Source of the DNA: Minisyncoccia bacterium | Lineage (GTDB): Bacteria > Patescibacteriota > Minisyncoccia > Phycocordibacterales > UBA918 | Length of the DNA stretch: 64,000 nt | Assembly: GCA_041742075.1 (NCBI GenBank) | Contig: JBGSJJ010000015.1 | Location: 1,132 to 65,131 of the forward strand | Direction: 5' to 3' | Shown here: in pieces, positions 6,647 through 40,702 of the stretch | Layout of the letters: the number at the start of each line of letters is the position of its first letter | How positions within the stretch are numbered: the first letter of the stretch is position 1 | Position numbers and translations under genes: made by a program | The notes under the pieces: model-generated | The model's input: the letters and a program-made list of their open reading frames with translations, nothing else | Database searches by the model: none | Told to the model about the DNA's origin: nothing

Positions 6647-6706
6647 CCCCAATTTTCTTATGGTCACCCTCGACAAGCACAGCGGGAACGCTGTGCTTTT
6701 TCTTTT
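6647..6706. repeat. Direct repeat copy 1 (52/52 with 1 mismatch, about 60 nt with looser flanks). A duplicated copy of the trmD 3' end lying just downstream of the mazF stop.
   Basis: ttcttatggtcaccctcgacaagcacagcgggaacgctgtgctttttctttt matches 7358-7409. It contains the hairpin AGCACAGCG-ggaa-CGCTGTGCT. Confidence 0.85.
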
Positions 6707-7040
6707 ATAACCCCAATTGCAGGCGCAACACATTCTCAACTGCTTGTAGATCACTAGCTGAGAGGTCAGCGATACGAGTGCCGAAACGCTGATGACTTAC
6801 GGTTCTAATCTGGTCAGTCATCGCTTTACTCCGCTGACGCTTAACAGTAACTAAACACTCACTTGGGTACACATGAGTGGTATTCGAAGTCAGCGGAACC
6901 ACCTGCACACGATTAAGATGCTTGTTAGCCATGTCATTACTGACTACAATCGCCGGTCGCTTCTTTTTCACTTCACTCCCTCGAGCAGGATTAAGATTGA
7001 CCCACCACACGGAGCCTCTCTTTGGTTTTAGAACCGCCAT
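6705..7040 (-). CDS. mazF: MazF/PemK/Kid-family endoribonuclease toxin (type II TA).
   Basis: 111 aa with VWWVNLNPARGSEVKKKRPAIVVSND...VVPLTS, typical of PemK/MazF. Overlaps the upstream antitoxin by 13 nt. Confidence 0.8.
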   Translation of the reverse strand: MAVLKPKRGSVWWVNLNPARGSEVKKKRPAIVVSNDMANKHLNRVQVVPLTSNTTHVYPSECLVTVKRQRSKAMTDQIRTVSHQRFGTRIADLSASDLQAVENVLRLQLGL

Positions 7041-7279
7041 ACATTTTCTGCTTCAAGCGTCTCATCAGTTCCATGTAGCCACTCACCCGCTTCGGCCTCA
7101 CGTGCGCTATCTTTAGCCATAGCTTTATACCCAGCTTCTATATCATCAACAATAACGTGCGGTCGAGCTAGTTGACTCAAGTACTCACCAACACCACGCG
7201 CACCGACTCGTGCTCGCAAACCTGCGTACACCTGCTCATCGAGCATTATTGTAATTTTCTTTTTTATGGCTGTTTTCAT
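7028..7279 (-). CDS. Antitoxin, probably leaderless, starting MKTAIKKKITIMLDEQVYAGLRAR (RHH/CopG-like). The ORF track extends it to 7306.
   Basis: Small ORF overlapping the toxin start. Operator palindromes sit immediately 5' of the ATG at 7279. Confidence 0.6.
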   Translation of the reverse strand: MKTAIKKKITIMLDEQVYAGLRARVGARGVGEYLSQLARPHVIVDDIEAGYKAMAKDSAREAEAGEWLHGTDETLEAENVWRF

Positions 7280-7316
7280 AATACGTATTATAATACGTAT
7301 TAGCATTTTGTGTCAA
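7280..7316 (-). promoter_or_regulatory. Promoter and operator of the TA cassette: TTGACA-N18-TATAAT, with two tandem 10-bp palindromes AATACGTATT overlapping the -10. The ATG lies about 7 nt after the -10.
   Basis: Plus strand 7280-7301 reads aatacgtattataatacgtatt (two perfect palindromes). The -35 tgtcaa is at 7311-7316 on plus. Confidence 0.55.
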
Positions 7317-7330
7317 TATACTGTTGTGCG

Positions 7331-8005
7331 CTACTCTTTCGCACGCCAAGCCTCAATCTTCTTATGGTCACCCTCGACGAGCACAGCGGGAACGCTGTGC
7401 TTTTTCTTTTTGTACTCCAGGACCTCAGGACGAGTGTACGTTTCCCCACTCGTTGCGCGTTCATCTTCAAGTGAGTCATGGGTACCAAGCACGCCTGGAA
7501 TATGCCGAACAACCGCGTCGATAATCGTGAGCGCCGGCAGTTCACCACCAGTGAGCACATAATCTCCAACTGAGATCTCTTCCGCCTTCAAAATACTTTT
7601 TACGCGACCATCAATCCCCTCGTAGCGACCTGAGATAAGGACCACGTGGTCGTACTTTTTGGCGTACTCTTTGGCAAGCGCTTGCGTGAATACCTGTCCC
7701 CGAGGCGACATAATCAGTGTCTTAATTTTCTTTGCATCTTTCTTCTTCCCTACTGCTTTCTCCCAAGCTCGCAAAATTGGTTCAGCAATCATCACCATAC
7801 CCGGCCCGCCACCATACGGCCGATCATCAACTTTCTTGTGCTTATCTTTCGTGAAGTCTCTTGGATTGTAGTAACTTACCGCTATTTTTTTTCCTCGCAC
7901 CTTAGCTCCCTTTCCCTTTTCAGTCTTCTGCGCACGACCAAGCACGCTGGCGCTCGTGTAAGCTTCGCAGACTTCTGGAAAAATTGTTATGACGTGAAAA
8001 TGCAT
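7331..8005 (-). CDS. trmD: tRNA (guanine37-N1)-methyltransferase TrmD.
   Basis: MHFHVITIFPE...PYGGGPGMVM...LTGGELPA. Canonical SPOUT TrmD motifs. Confidence 0.93.
   Translation of the reverse strand: MHFHVITIFPEVCEAYTSASVLGRAQKTEKGKGAKVRGKKIAVSYYNPRDFTKDKHKKVDDRPYGGGPGMVMIAEPILRAWEKAVGKKKDAKKIKTLIMSPRGQVFTQALAKEYAKKYDHVVLISGRYEGIDGRVKSILKAEEISVGDYVLTGGELPALTIIDAVVRHIPGVLGTHDSLEDERATSGETYTRPEVLEYKKKKHSVPAVLVEGDHKKIEAWRAKE
7350..7409. repeat. Direct repeat copy 2, lying inside the trmD 3' coding end. It encodes KKKHSVPAVLVEGDHKK.
   Basis: Near-identical to 6647-6706. Confidence 0.85.
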
Positions 8006-8068: not shown

Positions 8069-8106
8069 TAAACCTTTACCTATCATTAATGATAGGTAAA
8101 GGTTTA
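8069..8106. promoter_or_regulatory. 38-bp perfect palindrome taaacctttACCTATCATtaATGATAGGTaaaggttta overlapping the stop codon of the TrpR-like gene. Motif copy A. Either an operator or a bidirectional terminator hairpin.
   Basis: Perfect inverted repeat with 18-bp arms, followed by aaatttttt on plus. Confidence 0.6.
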
Positions 8107-8558
8107 AATTTTTTGAGTACAGCATCTGCCAGATTAAAAAGTAAAAAATGCATTGGGTATTGTTTGCGTAAATGACTGAACGTCAATGATTCTATATGCT
8201 CTTTTTGCTGTCGATTTTGGAGTGACTTTTTTGCTTGTCTATCCTCGACTTCTAATTGGTACGCTTTGAGTGAATCTTCGTAATGTGGCACCTGTCCCTG
8301 TAACCACTTCCGAGTTCGTGAGAAAGTGTTCGGACTTACATTAAAATTGTAGCTTATTTCTGCTTGTGATTTTCCGGCTAAAATGAGCTGTGCAATGAGT
8401 ATGCGTCTTCCGATTGTTATTCGCTCACTTTCAGTCAACAGTTCATTTATAAAGGTAACAACTCCATCCCTACTACTCATACACTCTGCAACAGACATAA
8501 GCGCATCGAGTGTGACCTGTTTCTCACTGTACTTTAATTTATTTATACTTTTACTCAT
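8076..8558 (-). CDS. TrpR-like / YerC-YecD family HTH DNA-binding protein. It occupies the position where rimM normally sits between the KH gene and trmD.
   Basis: 160 aa. LLTESERITIGRRILIAQLILAGKSQAEISYNFNVSPNTFSRTRKWL resembles the TrpR/YerC helix-turn-helix. Confidence 0.5.
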   Translation of the reverse strand: MSKSINKLKYSEKQVTLDALMSVAECMSSRDGVVTFINELLTESERITIGRRILIAQLILAGKSQAEISYNFNVSPNTFSRTRKWLQGQVPHYEDSLKAYQLEVEDRQAKKSLQNRQQKEHIESLTFSHLRKQYPMHFLLFNLADAVLKKFKPLPIINDR

Positions 8559-8572
8559 ATCACTCTATTTTA

Positions 8573-8588
8573 CTATCATCAATGATAG
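8573..8588. promoter_or_regulatory. Palindrome CTATCATcaATGATAG (motif copy B), 15-30 nt upstream of the TrpR-like start codon and overlapping its putative promoter.
   Basis: Shares the 15-nt core tatcatcaatgatag with copy C at 23501-23520. Confidence 0.5.
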
Positions 8589-8603
8589 ATAGAAATAGTA
8601 TGA

Positions 8604-8642
8604 AAATACCCTTCTTCGCTTACAAGCGAAGAAGGGTATTTT
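8604..8642. terminator. Bidirectional rho-independent terminator: 17-bp perfect stem AAAATACCCTTCTTCGC-ttacaa-GCGAAGAAGGGTATTTT.
   Basis: Perfect palindrome with A/T-tract flanks, between the KH gene stop and the TrpR-like gene start. Confidence 0.7.
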
Positions 8643-8659
8643 CAAGTCAGCTAAATAGT

Positions 8660-18846: not shown

Positions 18847-18872
18847 CACCAGCCTATCCAGCTGGTTTTATG

Positions 18873-18910
18873 TTGTCTAAACCTACCTGTTAACAGGTAG
18901 GTTTAGACAA
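18873..18910. promoter_or_regulatory. 38-bp perfect palindrome TTGTCTAAACCTACCTGT-ta-ACAGGTAGGTTTAGACAA about 60 nt upstream of dnaE. Candidate operator or hairpin.
   Basis: 18-bp perfect arms containing a CTGT/ACAG core reminiscent of LexA-type boxes. Confidence 0.45.
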
Positions 18911-18970
18911 CAGTGTAATTTGTCATGGAGGTGGGAGTAAAAAATTTGCTATACTGGTGTCTACTATCCT

Positions 18971-23374: not shown

Positions 23375-23382
23375 CAATACCC

Positions 23383-23418
23383 GCGCCGACCCCCAAGGGG
23401 TCGGCGCGATTTCTTTTG
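23383..23418 (+). terminator. Rho-independent terminator CGCGCCGACCCC-caa-GGGGTCGGCGCG + atttcttttgtt.
   Basis: 12-bp GC stem plus T-tract. Confidence 0.8.
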
Positions 23419-23446
23419 TTGACAATCTACCTTGGCACGCTAGTAT
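23419..23446 (+). promoter_or_regulatory. Promoter TTGACA-N16-TAGTAT for the thrS leader.
   Basis: Consensus-like hexamers read from the sequence. Confidence 0.5.
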
Positions 23447-23452
23447 GTATAC

Positions 23453-23695
23453 ACATTCAGAGATTGCTTCGGCTACCAACCGAGGAGGTATACAGTCTCT
23501 ACCTATCATCAATGATAGGTAGAGACAACCTACGATATTAGTCTAATCTGACCCTTAAGTGCTGACGAGAAAACACTTGTCAGAAACTCGGTGGAACCGC
23601 GGTTACAAGTACCCTTTCGGTACTTAAAAATCGTCCGAGTGAGCACACGAACTTTCGTGTATTCACTCGGACGATTTTTCAGTTATTAGTTTTAA
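23453..23695 (+). promoter_or_regulatory. Candidate T-box riboswitch leader for thrS. T-box core AAACTCGGTGGAACCGCGG at 23584-23602, competing terminator at 23626-23680, and a candidate Thr specifier ACC(A) in a hairpin loop at about 23473-23476.
   Basis: GGTGGAACCGCGG matches 13/13 of the GGTGGNACCGCGG T-box core. ACTCGG just 5' of UGGA can pair with CCGAGT in the 5' strand of the terminator AAAAATCGTCCGAGTGA...TCACTCGGACGATTTTT, which is the antiterminator/terminator alternative. The N of UGGN is A, complementary to U73 of the tRNA-Thr in this window. Confidence 0.5.
23495..23526. promoter_or_regulatory. 32-nt perfect palindrome GTCTCTACCTATCATcaATGATAGGTAGAGAC (motif copy C) inside the thrS leader.
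   Basis: Shares a 20-nt core with copy A (8075-8098) and a 15-nt core with copy B. Confidence 0.6.
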
Positions 23696-23705
23696 TTACT
23701 CACCT

Positions 23706-25460
23706 ATGCCAGAACAATTAGAAAAGACTCGACACACCCTCGCCCACCTGCTTGCGAAAGCTGTGTTGGTAAACTTTCCGCACGCCAAGCCCACTATCGG
23801 TCCGGCTATCGAGACGGGTTTTTACTATGACTTTGACTTCAGTGGTGGCGCGAGCCCAAGTGATGCCGACCTCAAAGTCCTTCAGACCACTATGCGCAAA
23901 ATGCTGAGTTCATGGACAGAGTTCTCCCACCGGGAAGTCAGCCCAGACGAAGCCCGAGCGGTTTTTGTGGGGAATCAGTTCAAACTAGAACTGATTGAAG
24001 AATTGGCAGAGAAAGGTGAGACTATAACACTATATACCGTTGGGTCTGGCAAAACTGAGTTTACCGACCTCTGTCGTGGTGGACACAGCGCGAGCCCAGC
24101 GAATGAAATCAGCGCTGATAGTTTCAAGCTGGATAAAGTTGCTGGTGCCTACTGGCGAGGCGATGAGAAAAATCCAATGCTCGTGCGTATCTACGGACTC
24201 GCATTTGCTGACAAAGATGGACTTGAAGCCTACGAAACACAATTGGCCGAAGCTAAAAAACGCGACCATCGAAAACTTGGGAAAGAACACGACCTCTTCA
24301 CCTTTTCAGAACTTGTCGGTTCTGGTCTACCGCTCTGGACTCCAAAAGGCACCGTCATCCGTCACGAACTCGATACGTTCATCTGGAAACTCCGCGAAAA
24401 GCATGGCTACCAACGAGTAACCATTCCCCACATCACCAAGAAAGACCTGTATGTCACGTCCGGTCACTGGGAAAAATTTGCCGATGAGTTGTTCCGTATC
24501 ACCACTCGCGAAGGTAAAGAATACGCTCTTAAGCCAATGAACTGTCCGCACCACACGCAGATTTTTGACCGTCAACCACACAGCTACCGTGACATGCCGG
24601 CTCGCTACGCTGAGACCACTATGGTCTACCGCGATGAGCAATCAGGCGAGCTGGGTGGACTTACCCGGGTACTTTCCATCACCCAAGACGACTCACACGT
24701 ATTTTGCCGCCACTCTCAGATTAAGGAAGAGTTCTTCCGCGTTTGGGACATCATCGACACCTTCTATGGAACCTTCGGTTTCAATCTTCGCGTGCGTCTA
24801 TCTTTCCACGAACCGACAGAGATGGAAAAGTACCTTGGCACGAAAGAGATTTGGGAGAATGCTGAGAATGCCCTTAGAGACATAGCGATAGAGCGTAAAG
24901 CAGATTACTTTGAAGCACCAGGCGAAGCCGCTATGTACGGACCGAAGCTCGACTTCATGGCCAAAGACTCCATTGGTCGTGAGCACCAAGTGGCGACCAT
25001 TCAGCTTGATATGAACCTCCCAGAACGCTTTGACCTTACCTGCATCAATGAAAAAGGTGAGAAAGAGCGTATCGTGATGATGCACTGCGCTATTATGGGG
25101 TCTATCGAACGCTTTACCGCAGTCTTGATTGAGCACCTTGGTGGCAACTTCCCGCTTTGGCTCGCTCCAGTTCAGGTAGCCATCATCCCGGTATCTGAAG
25201 TTCACGATGCCTACGCCACGCAAGTACACCAGGCACTCCGGGCTATCGGCATTCGAGCTGACTACTACGGCGACAATGACTCGATGGGCAAAAAGATTCG
25301 GACTGCCAAGCAAGCCAAACTTCCCTACTTCGTCGTCATCGGTGACAAGGAAGTGGAAGCAAAGAATGTGACCCTTGAAAGTCGTGATGGTGAATCTAGG
25401 CAAATTGACCTACACGCGCTCGGCAATCATCTCCTCACTGAAATTGAGGTGAAGAAGTAG
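23706..25460 (+). CDS. thrS: Threonyl-tRNA synthetase, short form lacking the N-terminal TGS domain.
   Basis: HTLAHLLAKAV editing-domain HxxxH, class II motifs, C-terminal anticodon-binding domain. Confidence 0.92.
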   Translation: MPEQLEKTRHTLAHLLAKAVLVNFPHAKPTIGPAIETGFYYDFDFSGGASPSDADLKVLQTTMRKMLSSWTEFSHREVSPDEARAVFVGNQFKLELIEELAEKGETITLYTVGSGKTEFTDLCRGGHSASPANEISADSFKLDKVAGAYWRGDEKNPMLVRIYGLAFADKDGLEAYETQLAEAKKRDHRKLGKEHDLFTFSELVGSGLPLWTPKGTVIRHELDTFIWKLREKHGYQRVTIPHITKKDLYVTSGHWEKFADELFRITTREGKEYALKPMNCPHHTQIFDRQPHSYRDMPARYAETTMVYRDEQSGELGGLTRVLSITQDDSHVFCRHSQIKEEFFRVWDIIDTFYGTFGFNLRVRLSFHEPTEMEKYLGTKEIWENAENALRDIAIERKADYFEAPGEAAMYGPKLDFMAKDSIGREHQVATIQLDMNLPERFDLTCINEKGEKERIVMMHCAIMGSIERFTAVLIEHLGGNFPLWLAPVQVAIIPVSEVHDAYATQVHQALRAIGIRADYYGDNDSMGKKIRTAKQAKLPYFVVIGDKEVEAKNVTLESRDGESRQIDLHALGNHLLTEIEVKK

Positions 25461-25492: not shown

Positions 25493-25526
25493 AGCAAAAC
25501 CTTTCATTCGAATGAAAGGTTTTGCT
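25493..25526. terminator. Bidirectional terminator AGCAAAACCTTTCAT-tcga-ATGAAAGGTTTTGCT.
   Basis: Perfect 15-bp palindrome with A/T tracts, between thrS(+) and the convergent minus-strand gene. Confidence 0.75.
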
Positions 25527-32416: not shown

Positions 32417-32446
32417 GAGCCCGCGACACTCGCGGGCTCTTATTTT
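32417..32446 (+). terminator. Terminator GAGCCCGCGA-cac-TCGCGGGCTC + ttatttt.
   Basis: GC stem plus T-tract. Confidence 0.75.
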
Positions 32447-32751
32447 ATATAGCGATTAATCGCTATATAAAAATGACTCGTCTATTTATCTAAGTTTCAT
32501 TTTTTGGAAGAGAAACGAAGGAATTGAAAAAATGTAAACAAGTAGTCTCTCTCGGCATATTAAATTAGATGAAATGCAAGATGTGGTAAGAAAATAATCT
32601 GAGGCGTATTCAAAAATTTACGTTATTTGTCACAGGTGGATATTTCAAAATTTTGATGAAGTACGAGGCGTGCAAAGCGTGTGAAGCGAAGCGTACTTGA
32701 TGTACGATGAGCTTCGCACGACTGCAGCACAACGAAGTAATTCGCAAAATT

Positions 32752-40587: not shown

Positions 40588-40629
40588 CATTCCCTACTCG
40601 CTTCACTCGTACTACACCTCTCGTATCGG

Positions 40630-40702
40630 AGCCATCTGTCAGATTCGAACTGACGACCTACTCATTACAAGTGAGTTGCTCTACCGACTGAGCTAAGATG
40701 GC
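40630..40702 (-). tRNA. tRNA-Thr (anticodon UGU). No encoded CCA. Discriminator U.
   Basis: Clean cloverleaf: acceptor GCCATCT/AGATGGC, D arm GCTC-AGTCGGTA-GAGC, anticodon arm ACTCA-CTTGTAA-TGAGT, T arm GTCAG-TTCGAAT-CTGAC. Confidence 0.9.

Follow-up and report, generated by a model that had tools for sequence, protein, structure and literature searches.

HisR (YerC) and TrpR are amino-acid-sensing repressors that bind lineage-specific 20-bp palindromes and are often autoregulated, with about half of hisR genes preceded by a site (PMC9413887). Here we describe a TrpR-family gene from a Minisyncoccia bacterium of the Patescibacteria (candidate phyla radiation, CPR), found in a stretch of 64,000 nucleotides of contig JBGSJJ010000015.1 that is referred to below as the window. 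The gene lies between two copies of a palindrome, CTATCAT-YA-ATGATAG, and a third copy occurs in the leader of the threonyl-tRNA synthetase gene thrS. Comparison of homologous loci indicates that the palindrome probably serves this TrpR-family protein (gene at 8076..8558) as its operator.

Like Escherichia coli TrpR, this regulator belongs to PF01371, with a small, predicted all-helical fold containing a helix-turn-helix (HTH) and a putative palindromic operator of ~20 bp that has a central TTAA or TA and overlaps its own promoter. Unlike TrpR, proteins of this kind are 140–160 aa long, with three extra C-terminal helices, an unrelated half-site and a second putative operator at the 3′ end of the gene. 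CPR organisms have little amino-acid biosynthesis to regulate. HisR of the Firmicutes is also a TrpR-family repressor with a 20-bp lineage-specific palindrome, and the nearest solved structures (3FRW, 3KOR and 3G1C) are of the HisR type; however, no his genes are involved here, the motif differs from cacTTTAnnnnnnTAAAgtg and two-sided flanking is not reported for HisR in PMC9413887.

A repressor gene between operators on both sides recalls lambda CI, although the fold is unrelated, any looping here is hypothetical and the TrpR-like family is chromosomal, with no homologue of the subfamily found in 2.9 million viral contigs. In lambda, the operators OR and OL enclose cI-rexAB with three sites per side, and a loop of ~2.4 kb sharpens autoregulation. 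A gene flanked by palindromic repeats, with further intergenic copies, is likewise typical of repetitive extragenic palindromes (REPs) and their associated tyrosine transposases (RAYTs). RAYTs are HUH tyrosine transposases and REPs number hundreds per genome, whereas here the gene encodes an HTH regulator and there are usually two to five copies per genome region. For the third copy, the closest described systems are T-boxes with a short Stem I (actinobacterial ileS, RF00230), in which the specifier sits in a small terminal loop and Stem II usually has an internal loop (S-turn). The thrS leader shares the terminal-loop specifier, the Stem II and IIA/B region, the UGGN bulge and the terminator/antiterminator, but its Stem II position is occupied by a perfect palindrome without an internal loop.

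Three palindrome copies in the window

The regulator gene and the palindrome copies are as follows.

8076..8558, minus strand: TrpR-family HTH gene, 160 aa (open reading frame (ORF); Pfam PF01371, 45.2 bits)
8069..8106, no strand: copy A, downstream putative operator, TAAACCTTTACCTATCAT-TA-ATGATAGGTAAAGGTTTA, overlapping the stop codon, ~70 nt upstream of the trmD start
8573..8588, no strand: copy B, promoter-proximal putative operator core, CTATCATCAATGATAG, 15–30 nt from the ATG at 8558-8556
23495..23526, no strand: copy C, GTCTCTACCTATCAT-CA-ATGATAGGTAGAGAC, at the Stem II position of the thrS T-box leader

These positions agree with the initial annotation, as does the description of copy A as a 38-bp perfect palindrome over the regulator's stop codon (arms of 19 nt, no spacer) and the sequence common to copies B and C, which is 16 nt long. 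Copy C had been described as a 32-bp perfect palindrome; its 15-nt arms are indeed perfect, but they surround a 2-nt centre, CA, that is not symmetric. The 20-nt core reported as identical in A and C is common to both (ACCTATCAT-YA-ATGATAGGT), with identity at 19 of 20 positions. In copy B the perfect arms span only 7 bp, with an imperfect outer extension over 8565-8598. A search of the window with the 20-mer ACCTATCATYAATGATAGGT, allowing up to three mismatches, returned these three copies only (0 expected, 100 shuffles), and matches with four to seven mismatches occurred at chance frequency. The three near-perfect copies in the window are therefore not accompanied by an excess of weaker sites.

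Copy A is scored as terminator-like on the plus strand only, that is, antisense to the regulator gene, and it encodes the last 8–10 regulator codons. At 8076-8105, and also in the related locus L116 (L001-L126 are labels of loci fetched from relatives and homologues), the regulator ORF runs into the palindrome and its C-terminus gains ...KPLPIINDR; the ORF of L002 stops short of the palindrome. The opposite strand of palindrome A has an ORF ending in ...IINDR, a by-product of the palindrome.

Palindromes flank homologous regulator genes

The same arrangement recurs around homologous genes. In L002, an orthologue that is 64% identical and has the same gene order, CATCTTACTATCATTAATGATAGTAAGATG lies 5 nt before the ATG and TCTCTACCTATCATTAATGATAGGTAGAGA just past the stop. 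Two to five TATCA-N4-TGATA palindromes accompany each gene in L003, L005, L007, L029, L032, L044 and L046, which have 41–52% identity and other neighbourhoods, and the same holds for all of the orthologous loci examined first (about nine independent genomes). The position of copy A is also occupied in L002, L003, L005, L007, L032, L044 and L116, and in L116 copies A and B are both identical.

A metagenome scan yielded 64 further loci at 27–52% identity. Scoring a gene as flanked when one perfect palindrome occurred at most 200 nt upstream and at most 200 nt downstream, we found flanking in 45 of 73 loci (41 of 65 after removal of duplicates), compared to only one of 332 neighbouring ORFs from the loci. 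That sole positive control is a minus-strand ORF of 223 aa at L093 1887-2558. On the upstream side, the closest site is mostly centred at -12 to -60 nt relative to the ATG; on the downstream side, it is mostly centred at +10 to +45 nt relative to the stop (45 loci). Downstream copies were rejected as intrinsic terminators, because a T run on the gene's strand follows only 5 of 45 of them. Loci L110 and L111 (1773-1808, 2253-2282) have two different palindromes, TCCATACTACAATATAAGCTTATATTGTAGTATGGA upstream and TCACTATCATATTTGCAAATATGATAGTGA downstream, which hints at cross-regulation by a second family member.

Palindrome sequence tracks the recognition helix

Comparative analysis of whether motif and regulator occur together, which the initial annotation had put forward as a check, came out in favour of a pairing: homologues in many Patescibacteria are flanked by a palindrome whose sequence depends on the lineage and tracks the recognition helix of the regulator. 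Each line below gives a recognition helix and its palindrome.

VSPNTFsRTRKWL: TATCAT-TA-ATGATA
ISPNTFTQxKxWL: GTATCAT..ATGATAC
VGRDTxWRVQ: nTTGATATATCAAn
VGRDTxGRVQ: GGATTGATATATCAATCC
VGYDTIyRV: TATGATATATCATA
TSYVT: ACTATACT..AGTATAGT
VGKATxAQVD: CAGTATACTAGTATACTG

The rule holds in the VSPNTFsRTRKWL, VGRDTxWRVQ, VGRDTxGRVQ and VGYDTIyRV classes and in six more. On sequence grounds, nothing argues more strongly than this co-variation for a protein that reads the palindrome, and together with the excess of flanked regulator genes over control ORFs it strongly supports a regulator–operator pair.

A distinct TrpR-like subfamily

The PF01371 (Trp_repressor) match exceeds the cut-off of 27 bits and covers residues 17-99, and all listed homologues carry this domain. 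A profile of the family retrieved 3FRW, 3KOR and 3G1C from the PDB at E values of 1e-9 to 1e-7 and E. coli TrpR at ~1e-4. The AlphaFold2 model is all-helical (predicted local distance difference test, 89). Foldseek ranks TrpR-family structures in every top position (probability up to 0.97), with E values of 0.2–1 and high root-mean-square deviations, as expected for a monomer from an intertwined dimer. As modelled, the protein has the TrpR-like all-helical fold with helices D and E as the HTH. Past the TrpR core, a C-terminal extension of ~50 aa comprises a long helix (residues 93-121) and two more helices, which contain the conserved motif YPxHFLLF.

The regulator scores below the cut-offs of both NCBIfam models, TrpR (TIGR01321; 29.9 bits, cut-off 67.25) and YerC/YecD-HisR (TIGR02531; 19.8 bits, cut-off 42.2), which places it in a separate subfamily. 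This subfamily comprises 555 clusters at 50% identity (E 1e-10 or better) with members of ~140–160 aa, and its named sources are Patescibacteria (Paceibacteria, Nomurabacteria). No second regulator gene (paralogue) was found in the window. Literature searches for YerC/TrpR in CPR, Parcubacteria or Patescibacteria, and for T-boxes in Patescibacteria, returned nothing relevant except the HisR paper (PMC9413887), and the literature searched contained no description of this subfamily. Judged by its sequences, the subfamily is distinct, CPR-specific and apparently not described before.

The thrS leader and the third copy

Copy C lies in the thrS leader, which has the following features.

23419..23446, plus strand: thrS leader promoter, TTGACA-16-TAGTAT, conserved in L048 and L050
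23467..23485, plus strand: short T-box Stem I (CUUCGG-CUACCAA-CCGAGG), whose terminal loop contains the Thr codon ACC (23475-23477)
23585..23603, plus strand: conserved T-box sequence AACUCGGUGGAACCGCGGU with UGGA bulge
23626..23684, plus strand: leader terminator, a stem of ~24 bp and then a T run, whose 5′ side has the T-box sequence as an alternative pairing partner
23706..25460, plus strand: thrS, threonyl-tRNA synthetase (Pfam PF00587 and PF03129 in homologues)

Given this promoter, copy C would be transcribed ~45–75 nt into the leader. On comparative evidence, the leader (23419-23705) is an atypical T-box, conserved with stem co-variation in L048, L049 and L050. The 7-nt Stem I loop CUACCAA is invariant and the stem co-varies (GGCAG/CUGCC in L049, CUUCGC/GCGAAG in L050); CUCGGUGGAACCGCGGUU is invariant in four relatives; the UGGA bulge fits the discriminator U of the window's tRNA-Thr (40628-40702); and, as the antiterminator alternative, ACUCGG can pair with CCGAGU on the 5′ side of the terminator. 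The leader thus combines a matching specifier codon, a T-box sequence with a UGGN bulge and terminator/antiterminator alternatives. The Rfam T-box model RF00230 aligns copy C to Stem II and scores 19.1 bits, below its gathering threshold of 93 (E 0.016 in a 189-nt search). Scanning the window at Rfam gathering thresholds yielded one tRNA only, and permissive scans of both palindrome regions yielded microRNA-model hairpin noise and the weak T-box match. A canonical terminator is also present at 23382-23408.

Presence of the thrS site runs parallel to presence of the regulator among relatives of the window.

L048 and L116 (same contig): regulator sharing 90% identity or more with that of the window; thrS site retained, a C-G pair being replaced in compensatory fashion by T-A
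L049 and L117 (same contig; TrmD identity 82%): KH–trmD slot without regulator, no motif in 40 kb; thrS leader with only TTTGCGTATCATATAAGATACGCAAA
L118-L120 (TrmD 91% identical), with L050: KH gene directly joined to trmD, no regulator or motif; L050 T-box leader without the palindrome
L126 (ThrS 87% identical): CTTACTATCATTAATGATAGTAAG, an L002-type putative operator centred at -29, past the leader terminator and before the thrS ATG

The L049 sequence TTTGCGTATCATATAAGATACGCAAA is a degenerate hairpin that has lost the operator centre. This parallel presence and absence, together with gain of a putative operator at two thrS positions, points to thrS as a real target in the lineage, and from these sequences it looks like a lineage-specific extra one.

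Promoter and neighbours of the regulator gene

The regulator is encoded on the minus strand between a KH-domain gene and trmD, downstream of rpsP, with these adjoining features.

8601..8644, minus strand: canonical intrinsic terminator of the KH-domain gene, which parts that gene from the regulator's own promoter
8567..8572, minus strand: -10-like hexamer TAAAAT, 8 nt before the ATG, read from sequence
7331..8005, minus strand: trmD, the co-directional downstream neighbour (Pfam PF01746)

It does occupy the slot normal for rimM, as had been remarked, which is right as a description and says nothing on function; the same slot in relatives contains NADAR, exonuclease or NUDIX genes, or no gene. 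The stem of the KH terminator shows compensatory changes in L116, and trmD has a -10-like TAGGAT of its own at 8023-8018, conserved in an alignment with L002 and L118.

Copy B makes up the whole 16-nt spacer between a weak -35-like TTCTAT (8594-8589) and the -10-like TAAAAT, and no Shine-Dalgarno sequence precedes the window's regulator ATG. At L003 and L005 the closest upstream palindrome has a right half that makes up an extended -10 (TGATATAGT and TGATATAAT, respectively) 6 nt before the ATG, and in several regulator loci the palindrome abuts or overlaps the ATG. Overall, Shine-Dalgarno-like motifs were found before 1 of 64 regulators versus 57 of 362 other ORFs (depletion, p = 0.001), and enrichment of a -10-like hexamer before regulators was borderline (p = 0.05). 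These patterns suggest, with modest support, that the regulator mRNA is leaderless or has a very short leader.

Two features of this region are recorded for completeness. Between trmD and rpoB (6705-7306, minus strand) there is a PemK/MazF-like toxin ORF (6705..7040), with a small ORF (7028..7306) upstream of it. L116 has both ORFs, its toxin gene being annotated PF02452, and no PemK/MazF gene was called in the trmD–rpoB interval of L002, L117 or L118. The pair looks like a lineage-specific toxin–antitoxin insertion. In L117 (9800-9890, 10001-10678), the KH–trmD gap holds a truncated duplicate of the trmD 5′ end (MQFHVITLFPEICQAYTDASVLGRAQKK, then a stop codon) ~200 nt upstream of the intact trmD, which may be a rearrangement scar where other genomes have the regulator.

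Copy number and dispersal

We scanned 185,579 species genomes, the window's source genome not among them, for the strict 20-mer ACCTATCATNNATGATAGGT. The scan revealed 40 loci, 21 of them in Patescibacteria, and several of these were regulator loci again; the others were A/T-flanked, terminator-like hairpins in unrelated taxa. Dispersal across a genome was limited: in the complete 995-kb genome CP060229 strict matches occur at the regulator locus only, with four core copies clustered there, and the window has three copies in 64 kb. High counts were seen in the Paceibacterota metagenome-assembled genome (MAG) JAYVBM01 (at least 13 strict copies on 10 contigs), in CAJWTE01 (6) and in L099 (8 in 20 kb). 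Extra copies within 10 kb on either side are rare and intergenic. Some follow a terminator and lie 90–450 nt upstream of a leuS, rpmE, rplJ, rpsB, peptidase S49 or glycosyltransferase gene, and others are located where two 3′ ends converge. Neither trp nor his genes were found next to sites. Short-read contigs end in or beside palindromes in L001 (end at 1542), L016, L024, L045 and L046. Palindromes appear to break assemblies in this way, and regulators and sites may be under-counted in fragmented MAGs.

Weighing the operator reading

Several observations weigh against an operator read by the TrpR-like protein. In most 20-kb loci sites occur at the regulator gene alone, and the regulon may be tiny or absent in many lineages; Pfam annotation revealed no clear functional theme among genes beside extra sites. 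In 31 of 51 loci the gene that follows downstream is convergent; the downstream site is therefore not simply the next gene's operator, and we rejected the candidate explanation that it serves a co-directional next gene. The initial annotation had placed copy B in the regulator's promoter: its distance from the start codon stands, but the promoter itself was not called by a consensus promoter scan, and for that reason a leaderless mRNA is something we infer. At thrS, the co-occurrence of regulator and site in L048 and in the window does not amount to two independent cases, the two being close relatives, and L050 and L118-L120 probably come from one population, to judge from a shared study and top hits. 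Lastly, many copies are perfect well past the lineage-conserved core, with sharp-ended arms of up to 25 bp, which a protein site alone does not predict.

These outer arms bear on a further reading, in which regulator and palindrome form a partly autonomous module. A hairpin or template-switch process acting on DNA would extend and homogenize perfect palindromes and occasionally copy them into other intergenic sites. With each copy, an adjacent gene (thrS at two independent positions, leuS, ribosomal-protein genes) would come under the regulator's control, and the protein may recognize or tolerate cruciform DNA. We regard this as rather unlikely. Among 121 copies, 18 extend at least 6 bp past the shortest copy of their own locus, and outer arms vary between copies and between orthologous positions. 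For example, the second downstream copies of L003 and L005 differ at four arm positions, all four compensated. The arms contain no G-U pairs or interior mismatches, pairing past the first mismatch extends no more than expected by chance, and first mismatches have no G-U bias (26 sense and 21 antisense, ~20 expected each). Selection on an RNA stem is not supported, given the lack of G-U bias and of interrupted arms, and from these comparisons a DNA-level process fits the outer arms better. Template-switch correction of quasi-palindromes is one such process. Furthermore, point mutation is an unlikely source of a 20-bp perfect match, so a mechanism that copies sites is still needed.

The window contains further long perfect palindromes. 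Upstream of dnaE (18871-18912), a second family that behaves in the same manner is represented by a 42-bp perfect palindrome with core TACCTGTTAACAGGTA; this core also occurs in L048 (5697-5736) and L116 (~202-241) with perfect outer arms that are entirely different, and is absent in L049 and L050. It has the outer TACCT and central TTAA in common with the TrpR-like operator, with half-site spacing 6 bp shorter, and may be another factor's site or reflect rapid palindrome turnover. A perfect palindrome at 25493-25526 (AGCAAAACCTTTCATTC followed by GAATGAAAGGTTTTGCT), between thrS and a convergent gene, is bidirectional-terminator-like with A/T runs in its stem ends, and another at 32443-32472 (TTTTATATAGCGATT followed by AATCGCTATATAAAA) lies directly past a canonical terminator; neither recurs in the fetched loci.

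It is decidedly unlikely that the protein binds the palindromes mainly in an architectural role and not for metabolite-responsive control of a regulon, whether it insulates its own gene, sets up a roadblock there or binds cruciform or hairpin DNA, with the thrS copy incidental. The only sites of most lineages do flank the regulator gene, and this arrangement is conserved despite variable and often convergent neighbours. Long perfect palindromes could also form cruciforms, and the extra C-terminal helices could mediate higher-order assembly. However, there is no obvious selective value if the only targets flank the protein's own gene, and extra sites lie upstream of the housekeeping genes thrS, leuS, rpmE, rplJ and rpsB in several genomes, with thrS having gained its putative operator at two separate positions. 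Aminoacyl-tRNA synthetase genes are also recurrent neighbours of the regulator (L063, L098, L107, L114 and L115), an enrichment that is modest and on which we do not rely.

The initial annotation's own alternative was a miniature mobile palindromic element. In the version weighed here, the palindrome would be dispersed or mobile in the manner of REPs or MITEs (miniature inverted-repeat transposable elements), inserting between genes and spreading at the DNA level, with the TrpR-like protein as a RAYT-style partner or unrelated. This reading fits poorly overall and is in our judgement very unlikely. It does account for the few genomes with 6 to 13 or more copies, for copies that are near-perfect or absent, for contig ends at palindromes and for sharp-ended, perfect outer arms that look like DNA-level copying and not slow decay. 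New copies also appear at non-homologous places in close relatives (the thrS Stem II position in the window; before the ATG in L126). Against it stand the low copy numbers in the window and CP060229, the absence, in most 20-kb loci, of a copy away from the regulator gene and the co-variation with the recognition helix, which points to sequence-specific recognition by a protein. No shared flanking sequence or target-site duplication was found around copies, Pfam searches for a transposase or HUH domain at the element reported only HTH families, and the protein itself is a small HTH protein. No solo palindrome was found at the empty sites of L117 and L118-L120, so excision by recombination between flanking copies is not supported. 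Nor is a phage or mobile origin, because there is no viral homologue and the five viral motif matches are A/T-flanked terminators in AT-rich phages.

Equally improbable is that the copies act as RNA hairpins (a 3′ stabilizer or terminator after the regulator, translation occlusion at its start and Stem II in thrS) with a common sequence owed to an RNA-binding factor or common descent. In its favour, copy C folds perfectly at the Stem II position, the L048 change (C-G to U-A in the RNA) keeps pairing there and L049 retains a hairpin after loss of the motif; terminator-like contexts with A and T runs occur in L032 (upstream copy 1), L058, L077 and L003 (downstream copy 1), and copy A is called terminator-like on the plus strand. 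On the other hand, T runs are rare after downstream copies, the arms lack the signature of RNA pairing described above, and proximal copies that abut or overlap the ATG would be untranscribed if the mRNA is leaderless. The L050 leader has a T-box without such a hairpin in its sequence, which implies that the T-box does not need it. The palindromes co-vary with a DNA-recognition helix, and TrpR-family proteins bind double-stranded DNA (PMC9413887).

Proposed mechanism and implications

Together, the comparative data support what the initial annotation had proposed, an autoregulated TrpR-family protein with its own gene flanked by putative operators and thrS as an extra target, with binding deduced from sequence. 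Under this operator reading, a dimer would bind the two-fold symmetric core of ~20–24 bp, as TrpR and HisR do. Bound at copy B, in the -35/-10 spacer, the protein would repress transcription of its own gene; in relatives where the proximal copy overlaps the -10 of a leaderless or short-leader promoter, a bound repressor would occlude that promoter. Copy A would be a second operator that may cooperate with copy B through a DNA loop of ~480 bp, perhaps by way of the extra C-terminal helices, or may stop transcription that leaves the gene towards trmD or enters it from elsewhere. At copy C, a bound repressor would be a roadblock to RNA polymerase in the thrS leader, added to the tRNA-Thr-sensing T-box, and the same sequence as RNA would supply the hairpin at the Stem II position.

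In the literature searched, no TrpR-family gene forming a unit by itself is described with operators at its 5′ as well as its 3′ end, and the two-ended arrangement points to looping or insulation. With an operator inside the T-box leader of its gene, an aminoacyl-tRNA synthetase would be under combined protein- and tRNA-based control. The sharp-ended perfect arms, in turn, may show how palindromes change over time in small genomes, and a partly autonomous module, if true, would be a case of bacterial regulatory rewiring by a self-propagating binding site.

Patescibacteria have very few regulators and their transcription control is almost uncharted. The clusters described here define a large TrpR-like subfamily across the CPR, and because each gene is flanked by its own palindrome, putative operators can be read straight from the genome. 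The many natural pairs of helix and palindrome would offer a ready-made specificity code that is testable without culturing.

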